Shown: piece after piece, positions 10,522 to 56,380 of the stretch
Position numbering within the stretch: the first letter of the stretch is position 1
Layout: every line of letters starts with the position of its first letter
Source: Candidatus Lloydbacteria bacterium RIFCSPHIGHO2_02_FULL_50_18
GTDB lineage: Bacteria; Patescibacteriota; Minisyncoccia; Phycocordibacterales; UBA6899
Assembly (NCBI GenBank): GCA_001821395.1
Contig: MHLM01000012.1
Span: forward strand, 64,001 to 128,000
DNA: 64,000 bases
Direction: 5' to 3'
The notes under the pieces: model-generated
What the model saw: the letters and a program-made list of their open reading frames with translations, nothing else
The model's database searches: none
Told to the model about the DNA's origin: nothing
Translations under genes and position numbers: made by a program

Positions 10522-12093
10522 TTGGGTAATATTTTTTTTGTGCCGCCATTAAAAGCATTTTTTCAATATCCGCTCATTGCCCTCCTTGTCGGAGTGGGTA
10601 TCGCACCGCTGTTCTCAGCATCTCGACCCCTTATTATCTTTTTACTCCTTCTTTCCGTTTCACTATTGCTGCTCGCGCTTGTTTATCGGCGCAAGGAATT
10701 TCTCTATGTGGTCATTCTCCTCTTATTCGCATTACTCGGTATATTGCGCTATGTGTTTTGGAGAGAGGCGCCCCTCGATCCACTTGTTGAGACAGCGATC
10801 GGAAGTGTGGTTGAGATTAACGGTATGGTCGATGATGAACCTGACATTCGAGAGGGCAGTACGAATCTTCTCGTTTCCATGCGCACGCTTCACCTCACCG
10901 CTACTTCCTCCCTAGTATATGGCCGACTGCAGGTTTCCGTAGCTCGTTATCCCGAGTATCGCTATGGCGACCTGGTCCGCATTAAGGGGAAACTCATGCG
11001 ACCTGAAAAATTCGTTAAAGACGACGGTCGCGTTTTTGATTACCCGTCATATCTCGCGGTAAAAGGTGTTCATTATCAGGTCCCTTTTTCTGTCGTCACT
11101 CGGGAGGATCGTAATGAAGGAAATACAATACTCGGAATGCTTTTTACGATGAAGCATGAGTTTCTCGGGGTATTAAGCACGCTTTTTCCGGAGCCGCACA
11201 ATGCGTTACTTGGAGGGTTGCTCCTTGGGGGGAAGCAGTCGCTGGGTGATGCTTGGCAAGATGTTTTTCGCAGGGCCGGAATTGTGCACGTCGTAGTCCT
11301 CTCCGGGTACAACATGACCATTGTTTCGGAATGGCTGGTGAAGCTGTCTAGTTTTATGGGTTTTTATGGAAGCTTGTCTGTCGGCGGAGTTGGTATCATA
11401 TTGTTTGCGCTCATGGCCGGCGCCGGTGCAACGGTGCTCCGGGCGGCAACCATGGCACTCATTGCGCTCTTGGCGCGTGCAACGGGGCGAACGTATACAA
11501 TGGGTCGCGCACTCCTTATCGCGGGCGTGTGTATGGTCCTGCAAAATCCGAGCATCCTTGTTTCCGATCCCTCTTTTCAGCTTTCATTCCTCGCTTCCCT
11601 CGGCCTTATCTTTGTCACTCCGGTGCTTGAAGCGCGCACGAGACTTTTTGTGCGCTTCCCTGTTTGGCGAGAAATTTTTCTTTCAACCCTTGCGACACAG
11701 ATTATGGTATTGCCGTTGCTACTGTCGCAGACGGGGATGCTTTCCCTCGTCGCCCTTCCGGTCAACATGCTGGTACTTCCCATCATTCCGCTTACGATGT
11801 TATTCGGCTTCCTCGCCGGTGTCATCACGGTCATCGTTCCATCAATCGGGTTCATCGCCGCGATTCCCGCCCATGTATTATTGGCGTGGATCCTTTCCGT
11901 GGCCTCATCCGCGGTGCGCATTCCCTATGCTTCGGTCTCACTCACTCTTTCCTCCGGCGTCATGCTTGCTGTCTATCTGCTGCTTACGTTGTTTCTTTGG
12001 CGTGCACATGCTTCTTTTCTTCGGGTAGATCGAGCAGTAATTCCGCAGTCACCTCTTTTGAGTTTAGCAAACGATAAAAAAGAAAAAGAATGA
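10522..12093 (+). CDS. comEC: ComEC/Rec2-family competence membrane channel (no beta-lactamase domain)
   Basis: Many TM segments; FRRAGIVHVVVLSGYNMTIV matches the ComEC competence-domain core (FR.G..HLLAISGLH); 523 aa. Confidence 0.7.
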   Translation: MGNIFFVPPLKAFFQYPLIALLVGVGIAPLFSASRPLIIFLLLLSVSLLLLALVYRRKEFLYVVILLLFALLGILRYVFWREAPLDPLVETAIGSVVEINGMVDDEPDIREGSTNLLVSMRTLHLTATSSLVYGRLQVSVARYPEYRYGDLVRIKGKLMRPEKFVKDDGRVFDYPSYLAVKGVHYQVPFSVVTREDRNEGNTILGMLFTMKHEFLGVLSTLFPEPHNALLGGLLLGGKQSLGDAWQDVFRRAGIVHVVVLSGYNMTIVSEWLVKLSSFMGFYGSLSVGGVGIILFALMAGAGATVLRAATMALIALLARATGRTYTMGRALLIAGVCMVLQNPSILVSDPSFQLSFLASLGLIFVTPVLEARTRLFVRFPVWREIFLSTLATQIMVLPLLLSQTGMLSLVALPVNMLVLPIIPLTMLFGFLAGVITVIVPSIGFIAAIPAHVLLAWILSVASSAVRIPYASVSLTLSSGVMLAVYLLLTLFLWRAHASFLRVDRAVIPQSPLLSLANDKKEKE

Positions 12094-24075: not shown

Positions 24076-24158
24076 TCCATCAAGCAAGCAATACGAACCG
24101 ATCCTCGGTTCGTTTTTCATTGCAATTTGTGATTCTTAGCCATATTTTCCCGCTTTTT

Positions 24159-24179
24159 TGTCAAGGTTAAACCTTGACA
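24159..24179. repeat. 21-bp perfect palindrome TGTCAAGGTTaAACCTTGACA within a ~40-bp repeat (second copy 45036..45056)
   Basis: Identical arms, T-run 5' flank conserved in both copies. Confidence 0.6.
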
Positions 24180-27194: not shown

Positions 27195-27746
27195 ATGTAC
27201 GATGATGAAGATGATGACGACGAAGACGAGGGTGAAATAGGGCTTGATGCAGAAACAGTGCGACGCGAAGAGGCCGAGGTCGTGCAGGGGAAAGCATCCC
27301 GTGCTTTTTATGATGACCTCGCAAAAAAAGAAGATGATCGTCACAATGCGATGCGTCTTGACATGCAACAGCGCGCACTTGCCGCGGGTGAACTCCGTCA
27401 AAAATTACGCAATAAAGAAACCGAGCTGCACGCGCTCCAACTCAAGATCACTATTGAGGAAGACCGTATCGATTATGAAAAAAAGAAAGCGTACCGTCTT
27501 GGAGGAGGTGAATCTATCGCTACGGGAGATGGAGCAACACGATCTGTCCCGATCCCCATACTCTCAAAAGATGTTGACGCTAAGGATGCTGATCAAGAAT
27601 TTTCGGTAGAACACGCTGAAATACACATCAAGCAATTGCAGAGTGAAAAATTGGAGCTTGAAAAGGTGTTGAGCGGAATGAAGGAGCATTTGAATGAAGA
27701 AGAGCGTGCGTTGTCACAACTTCAGCATCAACTCGTTCGCATGTAA
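27195..27746 (+). CDS. acidic coiled-coil protein
   Basis: Poly-Asp/Glu N-terminus (MYDDEDDDDEDEGE), heptad-like E/K/L/Q-rich remainder. Confidence 0.5.
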   Translation: MYDDEDDDDEDEGEIGLDAETVRREEAEVVQGKASRAFYDDLAKKEDDRHNAMRLDMQQRALAAGELRQKLRNKETELHALQLKITIEEDRIDYEKKKAYRLGGGESIATGDGATRSVPIPILSKDVDAKDADQEFSVEHAEIHIKQLQSEKLELEKVLSGMKEHLNEEERALSQLQHQLVRM

Positions 27747-27777
27747 TGGCGTTCTTCTTTTTGTTGCATGATATAAT

Positions 27778-29043
27778 TTGGTCATGCCCGAAGATGAAGC
27801 CAACCAATCCTCAGCCGCATCCGGGAGTCTAGGCGGTCTTCCCGATAGTGTAGCTCCTTCGGCCAGCGTGGAACCAAAAATAATTTCATCACCAGCACCA
27901 ATGGTCTCCTCTGTTGTGTTACCCGTGGCGAATCCTATCGATCCTGCGGCGACAGAGAGTTCCGCAAATAATGAGAAGCATCTGCTACTCATTGCGCATC
28001 TATTGAATCAGGTTCGCATCAAAAAGTCTGAGATAGGTGCTGCTCGCGATAAGATGGGTCAATTGGGGCGCGAGAGCGCGCAATTGCAAACCGAAATGCA
28101 CCATATTGAGCAAGACGTGCGCCGTGTTGAGGGAGAGTTGTACCAGGTCAAGCTTGATGCCAATAAGCAAGAGAGCACGTCAAAAGGAGAGCAGGTTGGC
28201 ATGAACGATAAAGATACGGAACTGAAAAGGCGGAGCGATGGCATCGCGAGGCTCGAGCGAGATATCGATAAATTGAAGCAAGCGATCGCCGAGCGAGAGC
28301 AACGAATAGCTGAGATAAAAACTGAAAATAGTTCACTTGCGAAATCAAAGGAGGACCTCAGGCGAAAGATCGAGCTCGAACTTGCAGGCATCAGGGTCAA
28401 GGCCGAAAAAGCACGCGAGAAGGAAACCGCGATACGGCGCATAAAACAAGATCATGAACGGAAAAAGATGGAGATCTTTCACAAGAAGAGTGCGCCTGTT
28501 GACCGCTTACACTCAGCTCTAGATAACCAGCGGGAGGTTTCCCGACTGGAGTCCGACCTGCGGCATATTGAGCAGGAACTGTCGCGCACAGAGGGCGAGC
28601 TCCGTCTTATCGAAACGAGTGAGCACCAAGAAGAGAATACATCAAGGGTGGATCAGGGTGAGATGCGCAATAGGGATATGGTGATCTATAAAACAGGAGA
28701 TGAGGTTGTTAAGCTCGGCAGAGAGATAGGGCGGCTGAACGTTGAGATTGCCGAGAAGGAAAGTGAGATAGCAAAGCTGGGCGGTGAAGGTCAGGAGTTG
28801 AGAAAGGGAAGAGAGGAGTTACGGCGACGGTATGAACTCGAGCATTTTAGTGCAAACTCAGGATTTACGCTTGCGCATGAGAAAGAGCTTCAGCTCTCTC
28901 GTTTTAAGCAGGGATTTCTTTTGAAGGAGGATAAGATCAAAAAGAACGAACATGCGCAAATACAACTACGCCATGACCTCATCTCCCTTGAGCAAGATCT
29001 GGCAACGGTTGAAGCAGAATTGCGTCATGCTAACAGTGCATAG
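27778..29043 (+). CDS. long coiled-coil protein with threefold repeated L..HIEQ.L.R.EGEL motif
   Basis: Repeats EMHHIEQDVRRVEGELY / DLRHIEQELSRTEGELR / LISLEQDLATVEAELR. Confidence 0.5.
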   Translation: MVMPEDEANQSSAASGSLGGLPDSVAPSASVEPKIISSPAPMVSSVVLPVANPIDPAATESSANNEKHLLLIAHLLNQVRIKKSEIGAARDKMGQLGRESAQLQTEMHHIEQDVRRVEGELYQVKLDANKQESTSKGEQVGMNDKDTELKRRSDGIARLERDIDKLKQAIAEREQRIAEIKTENSSLAKSKEDLRRKIELELAGIRVKAEKAREKETAIRRIKQDHERKKMEIFHKKSAPVDRLHSALDNQREVSRLESDLRHIEQELSRTEGELRLIETSEHQEENTSRVDQGEMRNRDMVIYKTGDEVVKLGREIGRLNVEIAEKESEIAKLGGEGQELRKGREELRRRYELEHFSANSGFTLAHEKELQLSRFKQGFLLKEDKIKKNEHAQIQLRHDLISLEQDLATVEAELRHANSA

Positions 29044-29157
29044 CTCTTGATGTGTAACACACTCTGCCGTCACGGGAGACGAACTCTTGCGGGGAAATCT
29101 AAGGACAACGTCAGGTGATGATATGGTTGTGCTTCGATAGTTTATTGTTCAGTAAAA

Positions 29158-29245
29158 GGTATTAAACCCCAGGGCAAGCCCTGGGCTCGCGATGGGCTCG
29201 CAAAGCCTCGCGCGAGTCTAGGGCTGTGCCGCAGGGTATTAAACC
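29158..29245. repeat. 66-bp GC-rich palindromic element flanked by 11-bp direct repeats GGTATTAAACC (TSD-like)
   Basis: Direct repeats at 29158..29168 and 29235..29245; internal ccagggcAAGccctgg hairpin and ctcgcgcgag palindrome. Confidence 0.5.
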
Positions 29246-29295
29246 TTTTTTAGCTCTCCTCGGCACCACGGAGAGTACTTCATTTTTTTATGTTC

Positions 29296-29343
29296 AGAAT
29301 ATTATCTTAACCTATGCTATAGCATAGGTTAAGATAATATTCT
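29296..29343. repeat. 48-bp perfect palindrome AGAATATTATCTTAACCTATGCTA|TAGCATAGGTTAAGATAATATTCT
   Basis: Exact reverse-complement symmetry over 48 nt in the convergent intergenic region. Confidence 0.8.
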
Positions 29344-29460
29344 TGATGTAGATATACATGTGTACACTTTTTTAATCGCACCACGAGAGTACTTCCATTC
29401 TTCTAAGGTGGAGTACCACCAAGAAGAATTGGTCGCTCGATGAAATCGCTCTACATCGGC

Positions 29461-29492
29461 AATAAAAAAACGAACCCGAGGGTTCGTTTTGT
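29461..29492 (-). terminator. rho-independent terminator for the dNK-like gene
   Basis: Minus strand reads aaacgaaccctcgggttcgtttttttattg. Confidence 0.75.
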
Positions 29493-29494
29493 CT

Positions 29495-30235
29495 TCATTC
29501 AGTGTGCTGGCGCATTTTTCGCGCTTCGGCAACAAGTCGCTCGAGCGTGTCCGTTGCGATATGGTTTACCATCTCCGATTCAGTCATTGTGGTCGTATCG
29601 ATGAGTTGGATCTGCGGATATTTCGGCGAAAGTTCTTCATGCATCGTCCGATAGCGGTCCACGAGTTTGCGGATCGACGCGGGGTTCGATGTCTCACCGA
29701 GCTTGTCCGAGAGTGCGATACGTTGTCCGCGGCGCATTGCTTCTTCAGGTTCACATACCACGACATAGGAGGCGATGATACGGTCTACCCAAAAACGCAG
29801 CAGGAAGAATTGCTGGATGAGTTCACGCTCTTCACCGGAGAGCAGTCCCTTGTCTTGCCAGTACATCATCCACGCGTACGGGTCAAAGATCGAACGATCA
29901 AAGATCACCACATCGTAAGCATGACCATGTGTGTAGTCGATGACCATCTCGAGCGCATAGAGTGCGGTGCGGATGTTGTATTCCGGAGTCGTACGCGGAA
30001 TATGTCCGATTACTTCGGCGCCTTCTTGCGGAATGTGCACGCGCAATCCTCTGCGTTTCAAGAATTTATAAAGTTCCTTGATGCAGGTCGTTTTTCCCGA
30101 ATCCGGAGAACCGGTGAATTCGATAAGGAATGGGCGTGGCAAGAATGTACCTCCGTAACGCACGTCCGTTCGCAGGTATCCGTGCAGCATGTCCGCCATG
30201 AGTTCGAGGCGGGCAATGTCGATGGTTTTTGACAT
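29495..30235 (-). CDS. deoxynucleoside kinase-like P-loop kinase
   Basis: Walker A GSPDSGKTT, downstream DRSIFD (ERS/DRY-like) motif and Arg-rich lid RRGQR. Confidence 0.6.
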   Translation of the reverse strand: MSKTIDIARLELMADMLHGYLRTDVRYGGTFLPRPFLIEFTGSPDSGKTTCIKELYKFLKRRGLRVHIPQEGAEVIGHIPRTTPEYNIRTALYALEMVIDYTHGHAYDVVIFDRSIFDPYAWMMYWQDKGLLSGEERELIQQFFLLRFWVDRIIASYVVVCEPEEAMRRGQRIALSDKLGETSNPASIRKLVDRYRTMHEELSPKYPQIQLIDTTTMTESEMVNHIATDTLERLVAEARKMRQHTE

Positions 30236-30288
30236 GAAATACTCTCTTTCTTTTGAAAAAGTACCAAGCTGTGTTTTACTATACCTGA

Positions 30289-30882
30289 ATGATGCTCAAA
30301 AATAATACTATACAAACAGGGCCCCGTATTGTGGGCTTTGACATGGATGGGGTGATCATCAACCATGCTCCGAATAAGATCATGCTTGCAAAGCGTTATG
30401 CCGTAACACTGCGTCCCGAGGAGACGCACTCGGAACTCCTGCCCGGCAAATTCCCCCGCGAGGAGTATCTTGCCTTCCAGAATATGCTTTATGGTAATTC
30501 GGATTTTGCGCTTTCGGCACCGCTCATGCTCGGTGCATTCGATGTTTTGCACGAGATGAAAGATCGTGGCATCCCCTTCGTGCTGATATCCCGCCGCAGG
30601 GAACCCGAAAATGCCATCAGACTTCTTAAGGAGCGCAAATTGTGGGGCGACTTTTTTACCGAAGCAAATGCTTTTTTTGTCGGCACACCGGAAGAAAAGA
30701 ATGTCGCAAGCGTACGAGAGGGCGTCACTCATTTCTTTGATGATGAGCGTAAGGTGTTGCGCGCCATACCGGACGTGAAAAGGAGATTTCTCTTTGATTC
30801 ACTTCGCCAATTCAATGATGAAGATGAGTTTGAGCGTGTATTTGATTGGAAAATGCTCCGTCAGATCGTTTTTGAGGAATAG
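30289..30882 (+). CDS. HAD-superfamily phosphatase, 5'(3')-deoxyribonucleotidase-like (paralog 1)
   Basis: GFDMDGVIINH motif I (DxDGV); 197 aa. Confidence 0.65.
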   Translation: MMLKNNTIQTGPRIVGFDMDGVIINHAPNKIMLAKRYAVTLRPEETHSELLPGKFPREEYLAFQNMLYGNSDFALSAPLMLGAFDVLHEMKDRGIPFVLISRRREPENAIRLLKERKLWGDFFTEANAFFVGTPEEKNVASVREGVTHFFDDERKVLRAIPDVKRRFLFDSLRQFNDEDEFERVFDWKMLRQIVFEE

Positions 30883-30956
30883 GACAAAACGCGGAAGGTG
30901 CATAAGTCGCTTTGAAGGCTGCGGGGGTCTGATACGATGAAGATGAGGAACCTCTT

Positions 30957-31544
30957 ATGACCATTATGCACGAAGAAGGAATAGTCCTTGGGTTTGATCT
31001 CGACGGGGTCATCATCGACCACACGCAAAATAAAATGCTGATCGCTTCGCGCTACGGTATTGAATTAAGTCCAAAAGATACTCACGCCGAGCACATGGGT
31101 ACGCATTTTACTCCTGAACTCTATCGCGTGATCAAATCCCAGCTTTATGATTCAACTGCGCTCGCGCTCGAGGCTCCTTTGATGGCGGGAGCTTTCGCGA
31201 CATTGGCAAAACTCCGCGAACAAGGGATCCCATATTTCCTCGTTTCGCTTCAGAAGAATCCCATGCATGCTGCGCATTTGCTCGAAGAGCGGGGTTTGTG
31301 GGGTACGTACTTCACTCCCGAGAATACGTTATTCGCACGGAATGCTGATGAAAAGCATGCACTCGCGGCGCAGATCGGTGTCACCCACTTCATTGATGAT
31401 GAACCAAATATCCTCGACGTGATGATCTCGATCCCGAACCGTATATTATTTGATGCGCGCGGACTGTTTCCCGAAAAAACTGACTATTGCCATGTAGAGA
31501 GCTGGAGTGAGCTTGCTGAAACACTGGGAATGGCGAATCGTTAG
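30957..31544 (+). CDS. HAD-superfamily phosphatase, 5'(3')-deoxyribonucleotidase-like (paralog 2)
   Basis: GFDLDGVIIDH motif; colinear similarity to 30289..30882 along the whole length. Confidence 0.65.
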   Translation: MTIMHEEGIVLGFDLDGVIIDHTQNKMLIASRYGIELSPKDTHAEHMGTHFTPELYRVIKSQLYDSTALALEAPLMAGAFATLAKLREQGIPYFLVSLQKNPMHAAHLLEERGLWGTYFTPENTLFARNADEKHALAAQIGVTHFIDDEPNILDVMISIPNRILFDARGLFPEKTDYCHVESWSELAETLGMANR

Positions 31545-31654
31545 CCTCGTACCAGTATCTCAGGTTCATTTTTGCGCTTTGTGGATTTTATGTTATGTTT
31601 TTTCATACGCTGTGAATACCGCGCGTAAGTTCTTTTGAATAAAGGAGTTCGAGT

Positions 31655-31966
31655 ATGACTGAGGCATTGCCTTCTTGTCGGGACATGCTGTGTGACGCGT
31701 TTGTCCGTGAATTTGATGAATTGCCGACAGATTCGATCTGGCTGGTAAGCAAGATAGGTTCCGAATTCGCGCTGTCCTCCGCGACGTCGATCGCTTTTAA
31801 GGAGTGGCTTCGACAACATCAGGGATTTTTCAGTAAATTTCCCCGCAGATATTGTGACTGGAAACGGAGCGATGTGCTGCGGTCGTCAAAGATCATCTCC
31901 GCTTACCGATCGACTTTTTACGTATACATCCTGCCCGATGAGCTAAAGACTTTTCCGGAGTCATGA
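31655..31966 (+). CDS. hypothetical protein
   Basis: AAGGAG SD upstream; 103 aa. Confidence 0.4.
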   Translation: MTEALPSCRDMLCDAFVREFDELPTDSIWLVSKIGSEFALSSATSIAFKEWLRQHQGFFSKFPRRYCDWKRSDVLRSSKIISAYRSTFYVYILPDELKTFPES

Positions 31967-32048
31967 GCATTCCCCGTACCTTTTTGTGTTTCAACACCGA
32001 GCATTGCTCGGTTTTTTATTTTCACACACGATGACGTACAATAGCACT

Positions 32049-32552
32049 ATGGATATCATTTCACATGGTCTCTATGGCGGTGTGCTTGTCGGCAGAAGGA
32101 GCCGTAAAAGTTTTTGGACTTCGTGTTTTTTTGGTATCGCTCCGGATTTGTTCTCTTTTGGCATTTTTACCGCGAGTATTTGGCTGCAGCTTGCTTCCGG
32201 TCCGGACTGGTCTTCGGATCACCCTGACGTTTCGCAGATACCCGATTATGTGAATTTGCTCTATGGTATTACCCATAGCCTTGTTATTTTTGCGCTCGTA
32301 TTCCTCATTGTTTGGTTTATAAAAAAGAAACCCGTCTGGGAAATGCTGGCGTGGGGTTTTCACGTTGTACTGGACATTTTCACCCACAATCTCCATTTTT
32401 TCCCGACACCATTCCTCTGGCCAATATCAGGGTACTATTTTAATGGACATAGCTGGGGTACGTTGGAGGTATTCATCCCGAATCTTACCGTACTTGCCAT
32501 TCTTTATGGCTGGTGGTGGTTTCAAAAAAGGAAGAAACGGGCTACCTCTTAG
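32049..32552 (+). CDS. membrane-bound metal-dependent hydrolase-like protein (YdjM/DUF457-like)
   Basis: MDIISHGLYG N-terminus, 4-5 TM; start taken at internal Met of ORF 31986. Confidence 0.45.
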   Translation: MDIISHGLYGGVLVGRRSRKSFWTSCFFGIAPDLFSFGIFTASIWLQLASGPDWSSDHPDVSQIPDYVNLLYGITHSLVIFALVFLIVWFIKKKPVWEMLAWGFHVVLDIFTHNLHFFPTPFLWPISGYYFNGHSWGTLEVFIPNLTVLAILYGWWWFQKRKKRATS

Positions 32553-37545: not shown

Positions 37546-37569
37546 TTCTTTCTAAGATTGAAGGAAAAC

Positions 37570-37591
37570 AAAACCGCTTACTAAGCGGTTT
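37570..37591 (+). terminator. rho-independent terminator after rplB
   Basis: aaaccgcttactaagcggttttgttg. Confidence 0.7.
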
Positions 37592-37672
37592 TGTTGTATA
37601 CAAGCACTTATGTGTCAAAAGTTTTTATACATAAGAAAATTGACATTCTTATGTATGAGGATATAATACTTC

Positions 37673-41272: not shown

Positions 41273-41361
41273 GTTGTATGCGTCTATTGATAATATTGCA
41301 CAATTATATCATGACACAGCAAAACACCACCGCACATTTGTGCGGTGGTGTTTTGCTTGTT

Positions 41362-41427: not shown

Positions 41428-42028
41428 TGACGTATTGCTTATACTGCTAATGAACGAACGTATCTTCAGTGTAGCAGATTTTCGTCATGACATGAAAATG
41501 CCCGGTTGTACCCATGTTGATAGTGGTCATACGGACCGACCCATGCTTATTTGCAAAAACAGGGGATAACTTTCACTACGGAAGGCGCTTTGAGGCTATA
41601 ATGGTGACAACATTTTCGCACATTACGCGCTGGGTGCTTTTGGAGTAAAAAGCGAGCAGGACGTAGTGTGAGAAGATCCACAAAATGGATCCTTATGCTA
41701 TGTTCCAGCGAATGGACATATCGTTGCGGAGAAACAAAAACTTCGTTAACGGTAGAGGTTAGTCGTATATCTTTCTTATCAACATCGTGGATACGCGTTC
41801 GTTGCCTACAGCAAGGAATGTGAAAAGTGATGAAGAGAAGTACTCTGGAGCCAATTTTTATGAATCCGTTGTCGAGTGCTAAAAAGCAAAAGTAACGATC
41901 GCCAATCGTCCTCCCGCATAAAAAAGTATCTGTAGTACTTTTTATGCCAGAGTGCATGCTCATCGAAAGATATCAACGAATTGTCATAGCGCCGCGTTCA
42001 GGCAAGAACGCGGCGTTATGTATTGAGG

Positions 42029-42146
42029 ATTGAGAACATAGCAAATTTCTTTGTTGAAACATGAACATGCAAGCAAGCCGTACTCCGAGTACGGCTTGCT
42101 TGCATGTTCATGTTTCGTCTCGAACTTTGCATATGTTCTCAATCCT
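42029..42146. repeat. ~118-bp near-palindrome with 25-bp perfect inner arms (ATGAACATGCAAGCAAGCCGTACTC|GGAGTACGGCTTGCTTGCATGTTCAT)
   Basis: Inner 52-bp perfect palindrome 42061..42112 flanked by imperfect inverted arms GGATTGAGAACAT...ATGTTCTCAATCC. Confidence 0.75.
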
Positions 42147-42231
42147 AAAGGATGAATGTCCAATCGCTACTGTTGCGATTTTTTTATTATCTGGCAGTCT
42201 GAGTACAGAATGGTCTTCGAGGGAGGCAGGA

Positions 42232-42918
42232 ATGGTTCAAGCATCAGTCAACAAAGAGCAACTAGATAAGCTTCGAAATACTTATTGCGATGCAGCGCAG
42301 TACTTGGGTGTCCCACGCACAAGTGCAGAACGATGTTTCACGAAACTCGCGCAATACTATGCTGAACCGCATCGGCGCTATCATACGCTGGCTCATCTGC
42401 ACCAGTGCATGGTTGAGTTTGCGGATGTAGTGTGGCACAGTCAGGATCCTGCGCTCATTGTCATGGCTATTTTTTACCATGATATTACGTACGACGTTCA
42501 TCGCAACGATAACGAAGCGAAGAGTGCGTTGTATTGGAAATTCATTGCCCGCCATGTACTCGAAGTGAAGAACGAAGGATTCATCGCCGAGGTCGCCCGA
42601 TTGATCGAACTTAGCGGCGAACATCGTACGGACCCTGTCACTGATCCTGATGCCGCGCTCTTCCTCGACGTCGACATGTCGATTCTAGGAGCTGACGCAC
42701 CGGAGTACGACGCATATGCGGCCGCAGTGCGACAGGAGTATGCGCACTGCAGTGACGATGAATGGGCGTTTGGTCGCGTTGCGAAGTTCCTTGATCCGAC
42801 CTTGTGTGAGGACAGAATATTTCTCACTGATATCTTTCGTCAAAAATATGAAGAAAATGCGCGCGCAAACCTGATGGAAGAGCGTTGCCGCTATCAAAAA
42901 AACCTACCGCTCGCATGA
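42232..42918 (+). CDS. HD-domain metal-dependent phosphohydrolase
   Basis: RYHTLAHLH and FYHDITYD (H..H / HD) motifs; start at MVQASVNK downstream of the palindrome; terminator overlaps stop (42903..42930). Confidence 0.55.
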   Translation: MVQASVNKEQLDKLRNTYCDAAQYLGVPRTSAERCFTKLAQYYAEPHRRYHTLAHLHQCMVEFADVVWHSQDPALIVMAIFYHDITYDVHRNDNEAKSALYWKFIARHVLEVKNEGFIAEVARLIELSGEHRTDPVTDPDAALFLDVDMSILGADAPEYDAYAAAVRQEYAHCSDDEWAFGRVAKFLDPTLCEDRIFLTDIFRQKYEENARANLMEERCRYQKNLPLA

Positions 42919-43899: not shown

Positions 43900-44970
43900 T
43901 TATATGATGAGCATTCCGTCGCCGAATGAGTAGAAGCGGAATTTTTCCCTTATGGCGATGTCGTAGAGCGCGAGGATGTCGCGCTTCGCTCTTTTGTGTT
44001 TGAGGAGTGCGTCGACCAAGAGCATGAGTGATGAGCGAGGGACGTGGAAGTTCGTAATAAGCCCATCTGCAATCTTGAATTCGTACGGCGGGTAGATAAA
44101 TATATTCGTAGGCTTAGAACATTGCTCAACACTCCAAGGTTCCACCTTGGAGTGTTGGATTGCAGCGGATTCGAGGGTACGCATGGCGGTAGTGCCGACG
44201 GGGATGATGGGAATACCCGCCGCTTTTGCACTATTTATTTTTTTTGCGCTTTCCTTTGTGATATCGAGATACTCCGCAAAAAGTTTTTTACTTTTGAAAT
44301 TTTGTTCATCAATCGGCGCAAAGGTACCCGCACCTACATGAAGCGTGACCTCCGTACGCGTGATGTGTTCACGTTTCATTTTTTCGAGTAAGCGATCGGT
44401 GAAATGGAGCGACGCCGTTGGTGCTGCAATTGACGCGGGATATTTCGCGAGAATACTTTGGTATTTTTCACGCAATGTGTGCTCGGACATCGTATTGCCC
44501 TTGATATATGGGGGTATTGGCGTCACACCCTCTTTCTCGAGCAAACTCCAAAGGCTGCCTTTGGATACACTGGGATTGAAAAAGAAAAATTGCTCTTCTT
44601 GTCTTTCGACCTCAAGGTGCGCCCCTGACTTAAAGAAGAGTTTGGCACCGGGAAGGATCTTGCGGTCGACCACTCCTTTAATAGAGATGTCGCCGGGACG
44701 GAATTCATTCATCATGAGAAGCACCTCGATCTTGCCGCCCGTTTCTTTGGAAAGCCACAATCGGGCAGGAACGACCTTTGTATCATTAAAGACAAGCAGG
44801 CTGGGTTTGGGGAGATATTGGTCAATATTCCGGAAAACATCAAAATGCACCTTATCAGTTTTCGTATCGTAGACGAACAATCGAGCGGAATCTCGCGGAG
44901 AAGCGGGCTCATTGGCGATAAGCCCCTCAGGGAGGTGGTAGTTATAATCATCGAGAGAGATCATGTGCAC
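43900..44970 (-). CDS. queA: S-adenosylmethionine:tRNA ribosyltransferase-isomerase
   Basis: LPEGLIANEPASPRDSARL, PIPPYI, AAPTASLHFT, HVGAGTF, TNFHVPRSSL, YSFGDGMLI motifs. Confidence 0.9.
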   Translation of the reverse strand: MHMISLDDYNYHLPEGLIANEPASPRDSARLFVYDTKTDKVHFDVFRNIDQYLPKPSLLVFNDTKVVPARLWLSKETGGKIEVLLMMNEFRPGDISIKGVVDRKILPGAKLFFKSGAHLEVERQEEQFFFFNPSVSKGSLWSLLEKEGVTPIPPYIKGNTMSEHTLREKYQSILAKYPASIAAPTASLHFTDRLLEKMKREHITRTEVTLHVGAGTFAPIDEQNFKSKKLFAEYLDITKESAKKINSAKAAGIPIIPVGTTAMRTLESAAIQHSKVEPWSVEQCSKPTNIFIYPPYEFKIADGLITNFHVPRSSLMLLVDALLKHKRAKRDILALYDIAIREKFRFYSFGDGMLII

Positions 44971-45035
44971 ATGCTATCAGGTGAAGCAATATGGGCAAGC
45001 TTTTCTATGTTTAGCAACGTATTTTCGACTTTTTT

Positions 45036-45056
45036 TGTCAAGGTTTAACCTTGACA
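45036..45056. repeat. 21-bp perfect palindrome TGTCAAGGTTtAACCTTGACA (second copy of 24159..24179)
   Basis: Same arms and same gtattttc...ttttttt 5' flank as copy 1. Confidence 0.6.
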
Positions 45057-45179
45057 ATTTTAAGTGGTGCGTTTGCGGCTACGATAATATTCCACAGATA
45101 ATCCACAGAGTTATCAACAGCAAAATGTAATAATTATGGCAAAAAATAACCCCAACCCTTCGGTCGGGGTTGGGGTAGG

Positions 45180-45419: not shown

Positions 45420-45589
45420 TGTTGCTCCTTCGGTTTGGTTTTTGAGTCTGACATGACATTAGCACGAAAAATATTTATGTCAATAATTTGATATTCCTAT
45501 ATTTTATAACATATTTTGACTTAATTCGAACGCCACACCTAGGAAGTGAGGGAAATAGGTCTTTTGGGAGACTTCACGGGCTTGAAATA

Positions 45590-45720
45590 CGCACCTGGGA
45601 GCGAGGTATTGCTTTTTGAGGGGCTACGGACCGCGGCGGCGGGAGTTTGAGGAAAAAGTCAGCAGACTTTTATCCGTGCCCTCAAAAAGCAATGCCGAGC
45701 GTATACATTGACTTCTTTGG
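45590..45720. repeat. palindromic intergenic repeat element (copy A) upstream of rpsS; related to 49590..49760
   Basis: Internal inverted arms gcgaggtattgctttttgagggg / ccctcaaaaagcaatgccgagcg; aligns to reverse complement of copy B. Confidence 0.65.
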
Positions 45721-48345: not shown

Positions 48346-48714
48346 ATGATACAACCACGCACAATAGTAAAGATCGCTGATAATTCCGGAGGAAAGGTCG
48401 GACGTATCTTTAAGGTTCTCGGCGGTTCGAAGAAGCGCTATGCGGGTCTCGGTGATCTCGTCGTGCTTTCTGTACAGACCGCAGAACCACGTAAGGGAGT
48501 GAAGAAGGGCGAGGTCTGCCGCGCGGTCGTCGTGCGCGTAGCAAATGCTTTTCGCCGACATGACGGATCGTACATCCGTTTTGACGAGAATGCGGTCGTG
48601 CTGATCGATGCAAAGAATGAGCCTCGTGCCGGTCGCGTTTTTGGCCCGATCCCTCGTGAGATCTCAGAAAAGGGATTCAAAAAGATTATTTCTTTGGCCC
48701 CTGAGGTCGTTTAA
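48346..48714 (+). CDS. rplN: 50S ribosomal protein L14
   Basis: MIQPRTIVKIADNSGGK... Confidence 0.95.
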   Translation: MIQPRTIVKIADNSGGKVGRIFKVLGGSKKRYAGLGDLVVLSVQTAEPRKGVKKGEVCRAVVVRVANAFRRHDGSYIRFDENAVVLIDAKNEPRAGRVFGPIPREISEKGFKKIISLAPEVV

Positions 48715-48727
48715 TTTCAATCGGCTT

Positions 48728-48961
48728 ATGCATATAAAAAAAGGAGACGAAGTAGTGATCCTCTCGGGAGATGATAAGGGGAAAAAGGGTAAGGTCGCTC
48801 ATGTGATGCCGAAGCTCGGCACCGCGGTCGTCGAGGGCCTCAACATGCGAAAGAAGCATCAGCATGCTCGTCAGGATGGAAAGAAGGGGCAAGTCATCGA
48901 AATAGCCATGCCGCTCCGTGTGTCCAAGTTGGCATTGGCAGACAAGCCAAAGAAGAAATAA
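48728..48961 (+). CDS. rplX: 50S ribosomal protein L24
   Basis: MHIKKGDEVVILSGDDKGKKGKV KOW motif; start inside ORF 48608. Confidence 0.9.
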   Translation: MHIKKGDEVVILSGDDKGKKGKVAHVMPKLGTAVVEGLNMRKKHQHARQDGKKGQVIEIAMPLRVSKLALADKPKKK

Positions 48962-48971
48962 TTGAACAACC

Positions 48972-49583
48972 ATGAACGTCCCAACAATAAAAGAAAAGAT
49001 AAAGTCCGCATATCCAAAGCTGAAAGAGAAGCATGGATATAAGAACGTCATGCAGGCACCTAAGGTGGAGAAGGTCATCATTTCCGTGGGCACCGGTAAG
49101 ATGTCCCGCAATGACAAGAAGAAGAATGAGTTCGTCGCGAGCCGGCTTGGTATGATCACCGGACAGAAGGCGTCTGCACGAAAGGCAAAACAATCGATCG
49201 CTTCGTTCAAGCTTCGTGAGGGTGATGTCATCGGACAGATGGTCACGATGCGCGGGAGCAAAATGATGGGTTTCCTCGACAAGCTTGTGAACGTGGCTAT
49301 CCCGCGTACGCGCGACTTCCGAGGATTCCGTGCCGCCTCGATCGATGCAATGGGGAATTTCACCCTTGGTATCAAGGAGCACACGATCTTCCCTGAGACT
49401 GCAGATGAAGACCTGAAAGACGTCTTCAGCCTCGCACTCACTGTCGTTCTTTCAACGAGGAACAAGGAGGAGTCCATTGATTTCTTGGAGCACCTTGGTT
49501 TCCCGTTCCGCGAAACTGCGAACGAGGGAAAGAAAAAGAAAGAGAAGAAGGTTGACGCCCCAAGTAAGAAGTGGAAGAAGTAA
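48972..49583 (+). CDS. rplE: 50S ribosomal protein L5 with Lys-rich C-terminal tail
   Basis: L5 family core; C-terminal EGKKKKEKKVDAPSKKWKK. Confidence 0.9.
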   Translation: MNVPTIKEKIKSAYPKLKEKHGYKNVMQAPKVEKVIISVGTGKMSRNDKKKNEFVASRLGMITGQKASARKAKQSIASFKLREGDVIGQMVTMRGSKMMGFLDKLVNVAIPRTRDFRGFRAASIDAMGNFTLGIKEHTIFPETADEDLKDVFSLALTVVLSTRNKEESIDFLEHLGFPFRETANEGKKKKEKKVDAPSKKWKK

Positions 49584-49589
49584 TTACCG

Positions 49590-49760
49590 CTCAGCATTGC
49601 TTTTTGAGAGCACGGATAAAAGTCTGCTGACTTTTTCCACCGCAAGGGTACTTCCAATTTCATACTCCCTATGGTCGTTGAAATTTAGGTCGCTCACACC
49701 TCGCACTGCCCGGCTCCGTAGCCTCTCAAAAAGCAATACTTCGCTCCCAGGTTCGTTTTT
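49590..49760. repeat. palindromic intergenic repeat element (copy B) downstream of rplE, with ~75-bp internal insert sharing cctcgcactgc / aaatttcaac modules with the 34.6/37.5-kb elements
   Basis: Reverse complement aligns to 45596..45700; insert aligns in pieces to copies C/D. Confidence 0.65.
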
Positions 49761-49837
49761 CGAGCGGGGATCCGAAAAGACTTATTGTCTTCGCCCAAGA
49801 GGATCGGAGTTCGCGTTTGAAATACAAAACCCGCTCA

Positions 49838-49868
49838 TTTGAGCGGGTTTTGTTCTTTTGAGAATAAG
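49838..49868. terminator. palindromic rho-independent terminator (near-identical hairpin to 41165..41197)
   Basis: caaaacccgctcatttgagcgggttttgttc. Confidence 0.7.
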
Positions 49869-49939: not shown

Positions 49940-50308
49940 ATGCAGATCCGCTTTCGGGTTCGCGAACTCGCTTTGGCAATTCGGGAATTTCTCGTCGGTG
50001 TCTTTGTCTTCTTCCGGCGGTCAGTGAAAAGAAGGGATGAAGTACGATATTGCTTCATGTGCCAAGAGTACGGCCATCCGCTTACTAAAGTATCGTTCAT
50101 GATCCGCACAGAAGCGCGGAGGGGGGCAAAGAAGGAGGCGCCATTCTCGGTCATGGAACTCCACGTGTGCAGTATGCATCATCCTGACAAGGACGTCGTC
50201 GGGGCAGACCTGTCCGAGGAAACACGATCATTTCTTCGAAACAATGATGCTGCCGCAGCGTGTGTCTACTATTACCATGATCCCGATCATGTTTTCCGCC
50301 TCGGATAA
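49940..50308 (+). CDS. hypothetical protein
   Basis: 122 aa; its 3' end plus terminator is duplicated at 51215..51288. Confidence 0.4.
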   Translation: MQIRFRVRELALAIREFLVGVFVFFRRSVKRRDEVRYCFMCQEYGHPLTKVSFMIRTEARRGAKKEAPFSVMELHVCSMHHPDKDVVGADLSEETRSFLRNNDAAAACVYYYHDPDHVFRLG

Positions 50309-50373
50309 GAGGTGGTTTTTTTATACTCCGTACGTTATCCAAAGGTAATTGGACAAAGTAGCAAAAATGCAAT

Positions 50374-51195: not shown

Positions 51196-51214
51196 TTGCT
51201 GAGCCGACACTTGT

Positions 51215-51288
51215 GCCGCAGCGTGTGTCTACTATTATCATGATCCCGATCATGTTTTCCGCCTCGGTTAAGAGGCGGTTTTTTTATA
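51215..51288 (+). repeat. non-coding duplicate (~96% identical) of 50252..50330 (3' end of ORF 49940 + terminator)
   Basis: gccgcagcgtgtgtctactatta(c/t)catgatcccgatcatgttttccgcctcgg(a/t)taagagg(t/c)ggttttttta; no start codon in copy 2. Confidence 0.75.
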
Positions 51289-52474: not shown

Positions 52475-55219
52475 ATGTCCTCAACAAAAAGGTTTTTTTC
52501 ACTGTGCATGTTTGGCATATTCCTCCTTCCCTCACTCGCCGCTGCTGACACCACCATCTCCTCCAACATCACCACGAATCAAACCTGGACCACGGCAAGC
52601 AGTACATACATCGTCACCACCGGTATTGCGATCAACGCAGGTGTCACCCTCACCATCAACCCCGGAGTGATCGTGAAGTTCAGCGGGATCATGTCCGGCA
52701 TCACCGTGAATGGGACGTTAAACGCCCAAGGAACCGCACTTGCACCGATATACTTCACCTCATACAAAGATGACACCGTGAATGGTGATACGAATGGCGA
52801 TGCGACCTCAACAACCCCAGCCGGGGGCGACTGGTTTTGGTTCTCCATTCCCGCGGGCGGAGCAGCAACGATCGACAACGCGATCATCCGCTATGGCGGC
52901 AGTTTCAATACTGCGCTGTTCTATAATAACGGAGGTAACCTCACCCTTGCGAACTCCGAAGTCGCATCCAGTTCCAAGTATGGCATCTGGACATATTCCG
53001 GCATATCAACTATCGCTTCTTCCACCATCGATCACAACGCGAGCTACGGTATCTATCATACGGGAGGCACCACTACCGTTGCCACGAGTACGATCCGCGA
53101 TCACAGCACCTATGGCTTCTCCACCCAGAGCGGAACTGGAAATCTCATCCTCACCAACAATATCTTTTCCGGTAATCTTCAAGGTGGAGGACTGGTGAAC
53201 TTGGCCGACAGTGCAAACGTGACCCATACGAACAACAGTGCAACGGGGCAAGGAAAGGGTGGCATGGTCATCTATGGTTCTCCCAATAAGGCACAGACAT
53301 GGGGAGCAGACCCGCTCTTCCCGTATATTATCTCAACGACAACAGGGTCGGTCACCGTGAGTACGTATGCCATCACCCTCAATCCCGGTGCGATCATCAA
53401 ATTTGAAGGAACAACCGCAGGGTTTGCGGGCAATTCAGGCACCTTCACTGCCGCGGGAACTACACAATCTCCCGTATATTTCACCTCCATCAAGGACGAC
53501 ACCGTGGGTGGCGACACCAATGGGAATGGCACGGGTACCACTCCATCTGCGGGGGATTGGGATGGTCTCATGTCCCAGAACTATAGCAATCTCACGTTGA
53601 ACAATACCGTGATCCGCTACGGTGGCTCAAAGATGCTCTATGCCAACGGTGTGAACAGCGTCATCAACCTATTCAACTCAGAAGTTGCCAGCAGTTCAAG
53701 TGCGGGAATCTATAGTGATGCAGGAACAGTGAATGCCACCGGTACGAGCATTCACGACAATCGCTACGGCTATTATCACGGCAATGTCCAAGGCAATAGC
53801 ATTGCCCACATTGCCAATGCCGGCAACACCATCTATCGCAATAGCACCTATGGTATTTATAACAATGGAACCGCCCTCGTGAATGCCGAGCAGGTATACT
53901 GGCCGGCGACAACAACGGGAGCGACGATGAATGGGCCGTATAGTACAAGCACCAACCCAGGGGGGCATGGAGATGCTGTGCTCCCCACATACATCGACTT
54001 TGATCCTTGGCTCTCTACCGTGTCAGGAAATATCGCAACGAATACCACGTGGACTGCTTCGAGTACATATGTCATTGATGGAACGCTCACGGTGAATGCG
54101 GGGACGACACTCACGATTCCTGCAGCTACGGTGGTGAAGTTTGCCAATGCAACCTCAAAGATCAGCGTCTCGGGGAGCTTGGTTGCAGATTCTGCAGCGT
54201 CTTCCTCACGAATATATTTCACGTCAATCAAGGATGATGCGGTGGGAGGGGATACCAATGGAGATGGGGGTGCGACTTCACCTGCTGCGGGAGATTGGGA
54301 TGGGATCAAAGTGAATGCGGGAGGCGTTGCAACACTGAACTTCATTTCTGCTCGCTATGGAGGAAGTGGTGGGCCCATGCTTTGGAACTATGCAGGAACG
54401 TTGGATCTTAATAATTCAGAAATTGCGAGCAGTAGTAATACGGGAATCTTCCATTCCTCGGGTGCCACGCAATTAATAGTTCGAGCTTGTGATATTCACA
54501 ACAATAATTATGGCATATTTGTTGACGACAGCTCGCTTGTGACAATCGGCAGCAACAATATTCATGGCAATGTTGTGGGAGTAAATGATAATACTTTTTT
54601 TGGGATTGATATTAGATATAACTATTGGGGTGATGCAAGTGGCCCATATAATTCTGTCTATCACCCGACTGGGACCGGTGATACCATCGTTGAGAATGCG
54701 TTTACGCTTGTTTCTCCATGGTTAGACAGGGTACATTATTTGTATTTCTTAAACCACAATTTGGTTACTTCGATTACCAGTGGAGTATTGGATTGGAATT
54801 GGTTCAACGGCACATCTACTTATGCGACGGCTTGGTATGCAGGAGTTAACACATGGAACACATATGGAAATTCGGTTGGAGGAGTTACTTTTGCAACAAG
54901 TACCACGGCAACATCCTCAGCTGATTTACTCGTTTTGGACATGGCTAGCTCATCTAGTGATTTATTCTATGCCATCTACGACCCCTTTGTTACTCCTACG
55001 GAAATTAAATTTAACCCTTATTATATGAACACTGCAACTGCTAATATAAGGCAAATGACCACAACTCATGAACTTGGTCATGCCCTAGGGCTTTGGCACA
55101 GTTATATAAACAACATCATGATTGCATCCCCAGCTTCAACTACTGGTCAGGTTTCACTGGGCACTCAAGATATGTTGGATTACGATTATTGTTGGGTGAG
55201 TCATAATTGTGGGATATAA
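52475..55219 (+). CDS. large secreted protein: signal peptide, three ~270-aa parallel beta-helix-like super-repeats, C-terminal metzincin (HELGHALGLWH) protease domain
   Basis: Repeated YFTS(I/Y)KDD.V.GDTNG..G.T.PAGDW and I(R/I)YGGS...NSE(V/I)ASSS blocks; HEXXHXXGXXH at residues ~880; start at MSSTKRFFSLCMFGIFLLPSLAAA within ORF 52409. Confidence 0.7.
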   Translation: MSSTKRFFSLCMFGIFLLPSLAAADTTISSNITTNQTWTTASSTYIVTTGIAINAGVTLTINPGVIVKFSGIMSGITVNGTLNAQGTALAPIYFTSYKDDTVNGDTNGDATSTTPAGGDWFWFSIPAGGAATIDNAIIRYGGSFNTALFYNNGGNLTLANSEVASSSKYGIWTYSGISTIASSTIDHNASYGIYHTGGTTTVATSTIRDHSTYGFSTQSGTGNLILTNNIFSGNLQGGGLVNLADSANVTHTNNSATGQGKGGMVIYGSPNKAQTWGADPLFPYIISTTTGSVTVSTYAITLNPGAIIKFEGTTAGFAGNSGTFTAAGTTQSPVYFTSIKDDTVGGDTNGNGTGTTPSAGDWDGLMSQNYSNLTLNNTVIRYGGSKMLYANGVNSVINLFNSEVASSSSAGIYSDAGTVNATGTSIHDNRYGYYHGNVQGNSIAHIANAGNTIYRNSTYGIYNNGTALVNAEQVYWPATTTGATMNGPYSTSTNPGGHGDAVLPTYIDFDPWLSTVSGNIATNTTWTASSTYVIDGTLTVNAGTTLTIPAATVVKFANATSKISVSGSLVADSAASSSRIYFTSIKDDAVGGDTNGDGGATSPAAGDWDGIKVNAGGVATLNFISARYGGSGGPMLWNYAGTLDLNNSEIASSSNTGIFHSSGATQLIVRACDIHNNNYGIFVDDSSLVTIGSNNIHGNVVGVNDNTFFGIDIRYNYWGDASGPYNSVYHPTGTGDTIVENAFTLVSPWLDRVHYLYFLNHNLVTSITSGVLDWNWFNGTSTYATAWYAGVNTWNTYGNSVGGVTFATSTTATSSADLLVLDMASSSSDLFYAIYDPFVTPTEIKFNPYYMNTATANIRQMTTTHELGHALGLWHSYINNIMIASPASTTGQVSLGTQDMLDYDYCWVSHNCGI

Positions 55220-55230
55220 CATTGAAAACC

Positions 55231-56195: not shown

Positions 56196-56380
56196 ATCAT
56201 AATTGTGGGATATAACATTGAAAACTATGAACAAAGACATAAAAGATATAATGATTCTTCTTATTGCACTTCTACTCTCCATCGTCGTCATTGCTGGAAT
56301 ATATTACGGAATAAAAAGTACTCAAGGAACTGTAGTTTCAACATATTCTCATCAGGGAACGCCTGAAAATCCGGCAATGT
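56196..56380 (+). repeat. ~190-bp duplicate (~85% identical) of 55203..55400 (junction: ...HNCGI stop + 5' part of membrane-anchor gene), encoding a truncated 47-aa copy
   Basis: cataattgtgggatataacattgaaaac(c/t)atgaacaaaga(t/c)ataaaagatataat... shared. Confidence 0.7.

Follow-up and report, generated by a model that had tools for sequence, protein, structure and literature searches.

A GC-rich hairpin between two convergent Lloydbacteria genes as a probable copy of a small mobile DNA element with relatives in many bacterial phyla

The 64,000-nt stretch of DNA analysed here (positions 64,001 to 128,000 of contig MHLM01000012.1, referred to below as the window) comes from a Candidatus Lloydbacteria bacterium of the Rifle aquifer, a member of the candidate phyla radiation (CPR, Patescibacteria), and contains a 451-nt spacer (29044-29494) between a coiled-coil gene and a P-loop kinase-like gene that converge on each other. 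Within this spacer, a GC-rich hairpin element at 29152-29247 is probably a copy of a mobile DNA element that is small, non-coding and non-autonomous. Its chief interest lies outside the window, in an apparently undescribed, cross-phylum family of hairpin elements that spans at least eight phyla with many copies per genome. The Lloydbacteria copy would be a solitary and remodelled one, whose 96-nt hairpin, followed by six T residues, would now serve as an additional transcription stop or insulator.

The window copy

The features that a first-pass annotation had listed in this spacer, namely direct repeats, a GC-rich core, a 48-bp palindrome and a nested hairpin, are all present where it had placed them. 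The window contains exactly two occurrences of the sequence GGTATTAAACC (29158-29168 and 29235-29245), and the 66-nt segment between them is about 70% GC and contains CCAGGGCAAGCCCTGG (29169-29184) as well as the arms CTCGCG...CGCGAG (29186-29216). An exact 11-bp repeat at such short distance had been considered unlikely by chance; however, five such places (within 100 nt) were counted in the window, and shuffles give about 1.75 matching position pairs each. The repeat alone is thus not rare, and its non-randomness is established by the family evidence and not by its own statistics.

This family evidence begins with a covariance model, R1, which was built from 37 diverse copies from other genomes with the window left out and has 73 positions. 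The window copy matches R1 over model positions 1-73 of 73, with 55.9 bits and E = 7.6e-12, and nhmmer gave E = 1e-10 for the same copy. When the whole window was scanned with R1, significant matches were obtained only at 29152-29247 and, with 22.8 bits, on the reverse strand of the same site, so that the window copy is nearly, and for the family unusually, symmetric. No other sequence in the window resembles the GC-rich element; weak profile matches at 11082-11191 were rejected as further copies, being located within coding sequence.

Read on the plus strand, 29152-29247 is a full-length copy of what is termed here module A, comprising a 5' leader, a first box, a first hairpin (H1), an expanded centre and a second box. 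Box1, GGTATTAAACCCC (29158-29170), which the first-pass annotation had read as the left direct repeat, is a conserved family feature of the form GG(G)TAT[T/C/G]A..ACCCC and not target DNA; it stands directly before H1, CCAGGG-CAAG-CCCTGG (29169-29184), the near-invariant core of the family, which is matched exactly. The centre (29185-29233) is specific to this copy and consists of the hairpin CTCGCG..CGCGAG and an arm, CTAGGGCTGTGCC (29218-29230), that resembles an inverted H1. Box2, GGGTATTAAACC (29234-29245), formerly the right direct repeat, is likewise a conserved family feature, GGGG(T/A)AT..ACC. In the R1 alignment, the expanded centre occupies the place where other copies have the variable hairpins H2 and H3; only a weak H3 (..GGGCUgUGCC..) can be aligned, and the centre pairs with H1 instead. 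Outside the window, the copy shares 35 identical nt, including the left box, with a metagenome copy (L056), and its subfamily is also present in Desulfobacteraceae, in a Patescibacteria metagenome-assembled genome (MAG) and in Flavobacteriaceae.

Because its centre has been expanded with an inverted H1-like arm, the window copy folds as a whole into one 96-nt hairpin (29154-29249), with -59.6 kcal/mol (z = -7.2) for the RNA fold and -31.7 kcal/mol (z = -6.1) for the DNA fold. The hairpin is followed on the plus strand by T6 (29246-29251) and preceded by AAAA, which is T4 on the minus strand, and it has the pattern of an intrinsic terminator, a GC stem-loop and then a U-run, in an atypically long form that a simple terminator scan did not call. 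We infer that the copy most likely acts as an extra, bidirectional terminator or as an insulator between the convergent coiled-coil and kinase genes. Such a structure could also have originated in situ, as an intrinsic terminator of unusual length for the coiled-coil gene, with its similarity to sequences elsewhere a coincidence, and a GC hairpin between convergent genes with T-runs on both strands agrees with that origin. An in-place terminator is nevertheless hardly credible in view of the full-length match to the covariance model and of the 35 nt identical to a copy in an unrelated organism; moreover, most copies of the family have no T-run, and the ordinary terminators of this genome have arms of 10-19 bp between an A-tract and a T-tract.

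Discovery and distribution of the family

A 23-mer from the window had no match in reference genomes, and this genome is therefore not among the reference species. A metagenome scan with an 18-mer returned 56 matches, mostly due to chance or to coding sequence (e.g., the repeated coding motif DWQGKPWAPGG), among which L056 and L038/L048 are clearly real copies and L042 is a further, weaker match. In L056, the shared 35 nt are followed by a different GC hairpin and then by GGGGTATTAAA; L038 and L048 have the same plan, with GGTATC boxes. A pattern derived from the two boxes alone led to a further member, with the same first hairpin, in a viral contig, and the exact 19-mer ACCCCAGGGCAAGCCCTGG was found in at least 119 reference-genome stretches. 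R1 gave 113 hits in 96 sources.

The hosts among the matches listed include Spirochaetota (Sphaerochaeta, Pleomorphochaeta, Sediminispirochaeta), Bacteroidota, Desulfobacterota/Syntrophia, Bdellovibrionota, Chloroflexota, Bacillota and Omnitrophota, together with the patescibacterial Moranbacteria, Parcubacteria, Paceibacterota and Saccharibacteria. One subfamily is common to Bacteroidales and Syntrophaceae, which belong to different phyla. The fetched loci include 19 from Sphaerochaeta sp. MAG3 and seven from each of two other genomes, and the family reaches dozens of copies in some genomes, occurring also in streamlined CPR genomes and in a phage. The phage copy (L078, 3016-3099) is situated in a structural module, where it separates a 115-aa open reading frame (ORF) from the major capsid gene and has a portal gene upstream of it; it is a possible vehicle for spread between hosts. 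Three other matches from the viral scan (L021, L205 and probably L079) were set aside as chance, and the annotated phage, plasmid and E. coli collections contained no family match. No description of the family was found in Rfam 15 or in the literature searched by sequence and keywords, although other sources may hold one.

Anatomy of the family

Module A measures 70-100 nt and consists of a leader, A(A)T[A/G/C]A.., followed by box1 (GG(G)TAT..ACCCC), H1, the sequence GGACCC with a linker that carries an extra hairpin in some copies, H3 and box2 (GGGG(T/A)AT..ACC). H3 is a second GC hairpin with a CAAG or UGAG loop, directly before box2, and its stem covaries strongly: 149 doubly changed cells were counted against 43 in shuffles, none of the 500 shuffles reached the observed value, and 94.7% of the cells are paired. 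In decayed copies, rare compensatory changes in the H1 stem and flipped loops are seen. When the consensus of the 5' half, GGTATTaAACCCC-AGGG-CAAG-CCCT-GG, is set against the reverse complement of the 3' half, GGTttAATACCCC-GccG-CTTG-cggC-GG, the two run in parallel, and module A can therefore be described as an inverted doublet of a unit made of a head plus a hairpin. The heads are themselves quasi-palindromic, which is why the boxes could be read as direct repeats.

A 3' module that is specific to the lineage, termed module B, is present in several lineages and extends the whole unit to about 137-190 nt. The unit is shortest in one CPR group (about 137 nt), longest in Flavobacteriaceae (about 190 nt) and of intermediate length in Bacteroidales and Syntrophia (about 150 nt) and in Sphaerochaeta (154 nt). 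In the four subfamilies with alignable ends, units follow an AAT and themselves end in AAT, and no terminal inverted repeats across the whole unit were found. The triplet at the element boundary covaries with a triplet near the foot of H1 (TAA/TTA, TGA/TCA, TCA/TGA), a relationship that comprises three lineage groups only. In 17 of 107 copies, the TAA or TGA of the leader is the stop codon of the upstream gene. Short variants in which everything between H1 and box2 is missing (..CCCTGG followed directly by AATCTCACC..) were observed in L130 and L162, both from Sphaerochaeta UBA8956, and internal deletion derivatives thus also occur.

Evidence for mobility

The most direct evidence for mobility is provided by a copy in Sphaerochaeta MAG3 (L086), a 154-nt insertion at AAT between hflC and a HAD gene, located 6 nt past the hflC stop codon and 8 nt before a terminator. 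Relatives whose HflC proteins are 97%, 92% and 89% identical have a spacer of 77-86 bp without the element, and one of these genomes carries other copies. The filled site reads ...TAAGCC AAT, then the element from GAAAGGTATC to CGTTGGGG AAT, then AAATTTCTTG; the empty sites read ...TAAGCC AAT CATTTTCTTG (L209) and ...TAAACC ATT AAATTTCTTG (L206). Both GGTAT boxes are internal to the insertion, and AAT comprises the only bases common to the two junctions, an arrangement (AAT, element ending in AAT) that fits insertion at a fixed target and equally fits a 3-bp duplication. Copies elsewhere adjoin unrelated genes and occur in both orientations. Taken together, these sequence comparisons show a mobile family that inserts precisely at AAT and multiplies within genomes, and the earlier suggestion of a miniature mobile element is accordingly borne out to the extent that the GC-rich element belongs to a multi-copy, interspersed family whose movement is demonstrated by the comparison of filled and empty sites.

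The same annotation had taken the two GGTATTAAACC repeats for a target-site duplication, which would make the 66-bp segment between them a classical miniature inverted-repeat transposable element (MITE), moved by a DDE transposase and flanked by 11 bp of duplicated target. The repeats are exact and abut the GC-rich core, and the ends of this core form imperfect inverted repeats, as the reverse-strand match to R1 reflects. However, the same boxes flank hairpins in more than 100 copies, at unrelated loci and in other phyla; in the resolved insertion they lie inside the element, with AAT alone common to the junctions; and whole units have no terminal inverted repeats. Since a random target duplication cannot recur in more than 100 unrelated loci, the repeats are not a target duplication but internal conserved boxes, and a MITE of this description is very improbable.

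Regarding the mobility of the family in trans, no transposase, reverse transcriptase or recombinase was enriched near the copies, and the largest ORF cluster proved to be a translation of the element itself. Truncated copies, considered as autonomous elements, were rejected as simply truncated. No asymmetry was found as to whether a terminator hairpin lies on one particular side of insertions. An additional arrangement was observed in L194 (reverse-complement approximately 4370-4700, element in plus orientation), where two head-to-tail copies with a 154-nt period are followed by a solitary 20-nt 5' end, ATGAAAGGTTTCAATACCCC, which hints at a tandem or aborted integration.

DNA element or RNA

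Small non-coding RNAs had also been suggested as an explanation of the spacer, and the family as a whole could in principle be a structured RNA (a small RNA, a cis-regulatory element of 3' or 5' untranslated regions, or a ribozyme), the window copy then being an RNA gene or motif. The strong covariation of H3, the stable tetraloop types (CAAG/UGAG, with CUUG on the other strand), the preservation of the core sequence across phyla and the very stable folds are all compatible with such an RNA. On the other side, no RNA family was matched when Rfam was scanned with the window spacer at E values up to 10 and with 27 family loci, only sub-threshold, miRNA-like hairpin noise being returned. Among the imperfect hairpin pairs of 117 copies, 36 are G.T and 37 are A.C, and neither strand therefore behaves as the RNA strand. 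The H1 loop is flipped from CAAG to CTTG in some copies, as is typical of DNA palindromes; the copies stand in both orientations beside unrelated genes; and dozens of near-identical copies per genome as well as precise insertion are at odds with an RNA gene. A purely RNA-based explanation of the family is consequently considered improbable, and a DNA element is preferred, although an element can be both mobile and transcribed and may have a role at the RNA level.

Several other identities were considered and rejected. The c-di-GMP-I (cyclic di-guanosine monophosphate) riboswitch and the twister ribozyme, suggested by short resemblances (CAGGGCAA.., CGCAAAGCC, CAAGCCC), received no support from covariance models; a clustered regularly interspaced short palindromic repeat (CRISPR) was rejected on spacing; an integron attC site because the core sites are missing; a selenocysteine insertion sequence (SECIS) element because TAA replaces TGA in some clades; and a small ORF because of frame-breaking indels.

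Proposed mechanism and comparison with known systems

In a working model, movement of the element would depend on a trans-acting enzyme able to recognise folded hairpins, principally H1, and to join DNA at the AAT core. The route might involve a single-stranded or circular intermediate, as in the IS200/IS605 family and in repetitive extragenic palindromic (REP) sequences with their REP-associated tyrosine transposases (RAYTs); alternatively, a small site-specific recombinase might be responsible. The absence of terminal inverted repeats, a fixed target that equals the last bases of the element, suitably spaced subterminal hairpins and the covariation of the boundary triplet all fit this model.

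REP sequences are short extragenic hairpins mobilised by RAYTs (TnpA-REP, Y1 HUH endonucleases) and are species-specific (PMC6006769); they are defined by a tetranucleotide, GT[AG]G (or CGTC), at the foot of the hairpin (PMC6006769, PMC3733652). The present family resembles REPs and their hairpin-forming doublets (REPINs) in its short GC-rich hairpins outside genes, whose foot is preceded on the 5' side by a short conserved head, in its organisation as an inverted doublet, in its multiple copies downstream of genes or between convergent genes, in its lack of coding capacity and, as we infer for the family here, in its mobilisation in trans. It differs in keeping a 19-23-nt core across at least eight phyla, whereas REPs are confined to species; in the unlikeness of its doublet hairpins, H1 being fixed and H3 free; in the extra 3' module of many copies; and in that no RAYT gene adjoins any copy, none having been found within 2.5 kb of 119 copies.

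With the ends of IS200/IS605 elements and their miniature derivatives, the palindrome-associated transposable elements (PATEs), the family shares subterminal hairpins without terminal inverted repeats of the whole unit and a 5' hairpin that starts about 17-20 nt from the left end; its junctions would fit insertion immediately 3' of a fixed AAT by an element that ends in AAT, as in these systems, but equally a 3-bp duplication. In short copies made of module A only (in Desulfobacteraceae and the Patescibacteria MAG160), the right end seems, by inspection, to lie about 15-20 nt past the last hairpin foot, and the covariation of the boundary triplet, in three lineage groups only, recalls the pairing between guide and cleavage site. 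Points of difference are that neither a TnpA nor a TnpB partner was found, that the hairpins at left and right differ from each other in the longer subfamilies, and that no strand bias is seen, the proxy used for it being a weak one.

MITEs such as Correia, RUP and BOX are, like the present family, small, non-autonomous, intergenic, multi-copy and structured, and module A is bounded by quasi-inverted boxes; yet in MITEs true terminal inverted repeats correspond to a DDE transposon, and the duplicated target has a set length but varies in sequence, whereas the units described here have no such repeats, no transposase near any copy and a fixed AAT as junction repeat. Integron attC sites, likewise imperfect palindromes, are recognised in their folded single-stranded form, directly follow stop codons and are conserved in structure above sequence, but the family lacks the R''/R' core sites (RYYYAAC / GTTRRRY) and forms no cassette arrays, its copies being dispersed and their core sequence conserved. 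GC-rich hairpin islands in AT-rich spacers are also known as the mobile GC clusters and palindromic elements of AT-rich organelle and Rickettsia genomes, which differ in their hosts, are lineage-confined and have no sequence relationship to the family.

Several observations weigh against this reading of the window copy and of the family. No candidate mobilising enzyme was found in the window or adjoining any copy, so that a partner gene is lacking; the GTAG and CGTC tags of REPs are absent, the head here being GGTAT-N3-5-ACC(CC); the two hairpins are unlike each other; and copies are oriented with the local gene strand in 24 cases and against it in 33 (p = 0.29), which lends no support to the lagging-strand bias typical of IS200/IS605, the gene strand being, however, a weak indicator of the direction of replication. 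The invariance of H1 is partly due to the search with an exact 19-mer. As for the window copy, it does not have the AAT junctions of the family, with AGT followed by AAAAGG on the 5' side and no AAT within 45 nt past box2; it is therefore probably old and decayed, or else its true 3' end lies elsewhere. It is, furthermore, the single copy in about 82 kb of the Lloydbacteria genome (the window and about 18 kb beyond its edges), which lends no support to activity in this lineage, and the kinase gene has no relative between 76% and 100% identity that could supply an empty site at close range. Finally, the stem of the putative terminator is far longer than usual and stands 110 nt past the stop codon, its function in termination being a prediction only.

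A more far-reaching proposition is put forward tentatively, as a possibility: that a protein-less family of hairpins, about 70-190 nt in length and built on a near-invariant core of 19-23 nt, has been distributed horizontally over at least eight phyla, including ultra-small CPR genomes and at least one phage, by precise insertion at AAT, often between a stop codon and a terminator, and that a widespread trans-acting enzyme or host function reads H1. As a rule, small non-autonomous repeats such as REPs, MITEs and PATEs do not extend beyond one species or genus and are linked to a transposase resident there. If the proposition is true, a defined DNA hairpin must be recognised by some widespread mobilising activity, and the family would be the first broadly cross-phylum element of the REP or MITE type and a handle on a new mobilisation system. 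It would also mark horizontal exchange between the anaerobic communities of sediments, groundwater and digesters. By repeatedly placing strong hairpins between stop codons and terminators, the family would be likely to influence termination and the stability of mRNA. In genome annotation, it accounts for GC-rich islands in AT-rich spacers and for some assembly breaks.

Genomic context and origin of the spacer

The spacer is bounded on the left by the coiled-coil gene (27778-29043, plus strand) and on the right by the P-loop kinase-like gene (29495-30235, minus strand). Both belong to a block of non-ribosomal genes between the elongation factor genes for EF-G and EF-Tu in the str/S10 ribosomal operon. 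In comparison with L010, L013, L015 and L018, this EF-G/EF-Tu interval of the str operon (27195-32552) is a variable insertion hot spot in this group of Paceibacteria: here it holds two coiled-coil genes, the P-loop kinase, two NT5C-like HAD genes and a YdjM gene, and in relatives the corresponding place is taken by TldD/PmbA, NUDIX or other small genes.

Over its full 451 nt, the spacer folds much more stably than its shuffles on both strands (z = -9.8 and -9.0). Its sequence is identical across four independent assemblies except for one base in L001, and other assemblies of the same strain (L005-L009) break at the centre of the palindrome or within the GC-rich element. The contigs of L006, L008 and L009 stop at the centre of the 48-bp palindrome or only a few bases from it; in L005 a contig end lies inside the GC-rich element, where L007 has an N-gap. 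The palindrome and the element thus interrupt short-read assemblies.

In the nearest relative of the kinase (L019, 76% identical), a homologous coiled-coil gene also converges on the kinase gene, and the spacer at the same place measures 48 bp and contains a single bidirectional terminator; the spacers of other relatives measure 39-135 bp and contain plain terminators. About 410 bp (29044 to approximately 29460) are therefore a recent gain of the Lloydbacteria lineage, located between an unchanged stop codon and the ancestral terminator, with the copy of the GC-rich element as part of it. An odd-looking spacer thereby becomes a dated insertion history.

Other features of the spacer and of the window

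The gained sequence begins, after the stop codon of the coiled-coil gene, with an unstructured, lineage-specific stretch of 108 nt (29044-29151; fold z = +0.46 and +0.45) that is absent from L019 and has no similarity to any fetched locus. Past the GC-rich element, a 7-bp hairpin, GCUCUCC/GGAGAGU (29253-29276; -10.2 kcal/mol, z = -2.8), is followed by a 6-nt gap and by T7 (29283-29289) and constitutes, on the plus strand, a weak terminator-like site (29253-29289) that the terminator scan did not call. A repeat of 18/19 nt with the pattern GCACCACG(G)AGAGTACTTC is present in two plus-strand copies, GCACCACGGAGAGTACTTC at 29263-29281 and GCACCACGAGAGTACTTC at 29378-29395, which bracket a 96-nt segment. 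This segment contains the perfect, AT-rich 48-bp palindrome (29296-29343), identified by inverted-repeat and fold analysis, with arms of 24 nt, no spacer and an RNA fold of -30.2 kcal/mol (z = -10). The nested hairpin CCATTCTTCT..GGTGG-AGTA-CCACC..AGAAGAATTGG (29395-29432, plus strand; -17.6 kcal/mol, z = -4.1) has no T-run on either strand.

Two proper terminators had been reported for the flanking genes. The one at 29461-29492 is supported by scan and fold: it corresponds to a bidirectional intrinsic terminator at 29467-29490, serving the kinase gene on the minus strand as well as the plus strand, with scan hits on both strands (-13.2 and -13.7 kcal/mol) and the same position as the single terminator of L019. 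The other, at 29357-29375, could not be upheld, with a fold of -2.8 kcal/mol (z = -0.4) and no scan hit.

No homologues of the palindrome, the 18/19-nt repeats or the nested hairpin, nor of the unstructured stretch and the hairpin at 29253-29276, were found in the window, in the fetched loci or in the viral, phage and plasmid collections, and the first three appear to be separate from the family element and not recognisably family sequence. The remainder of the gain may stem from another insertion event, may be a 3' module of the same element peculiar to its subfamily, or may consist of protein-binding sites. A more inclusive reading treats the entire gain of about 410 bp (29044-29460) as one composite element or a decayed gene, in which the palindrome, the repeats and the nested hairpin would be module B. 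It draws on the 48-bp spacer of L019, on the hairpin-rich 3' modules ending in ..AAT of other subfamilies, on the resemblance of ..CACTTTTTTAAT at 29365-29376 to the 3' end ..AAAGTTTTAAT of the closest subfamily made of module A only, and on a loose likeness, by inspection, of 29432-29463 to the CPR-type 3' end ..TCGCTC..CAAT. However, three full-length subfamily profiles match only 29152-29258 and thus reveal no homology to module B in the window; beyond 29250 there is no similarity to any fetched locus; and no ORF exceeds 35 codons. A composite element is for these reasons rather unlikely, and a solitary copy of module A at 29152-29247 is preferred.

Elsewhere in the window, which contains no tRNA or tmRNA, perfect inverted repeats are abundant: those with arms of at least 12 nt occur at six places, against 0.08 expected. 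Those at 37567-37595, 41318-41357, 49824-49853 and 44127-44157 are among these six, of which three are textbook bidirectional terminators, with a GC stem between an A-tract and a T-tract. A perfect 61-bp palindrome with 30-nt arms and a 1-nt spacer (42056-42116) forms the core of an imperfect palindrome of about 120 nt (42027-42146); it overlaps the start of an ORF (42061-42918) and has no sequence relation to the 48-bp palindrome. A 22-nt palindrome, TTGTCAAGGTT(T)AAACCTTGACAA, is found twice upstream of genes (24143-24179 and 45020-45057), in both cases after a shared TATTTTC..TTTTTT stretch and with TTGACA on both strands, and looks like a promoter or operator site.

Longer repeats were also observed. 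An inverted pair of approximately 120-180 nt (45580-45701 and 49588-49765), 83-96% complementary and 3.9 kb apart, encloses the genes for ribosomal proteins L22, S3 and L16 as well as an ORF on the minus strand (48686-49663). Two pairs of direct repeats, each about 1 kb apart and placed around one ORF, suggest local duplications: one of 75 nt with 96% identity, which includes a terminator hairpin (50251-50325 and 51214-51288), and one of 122 nt with 89% identity (55201-55322 and 56197-56318).

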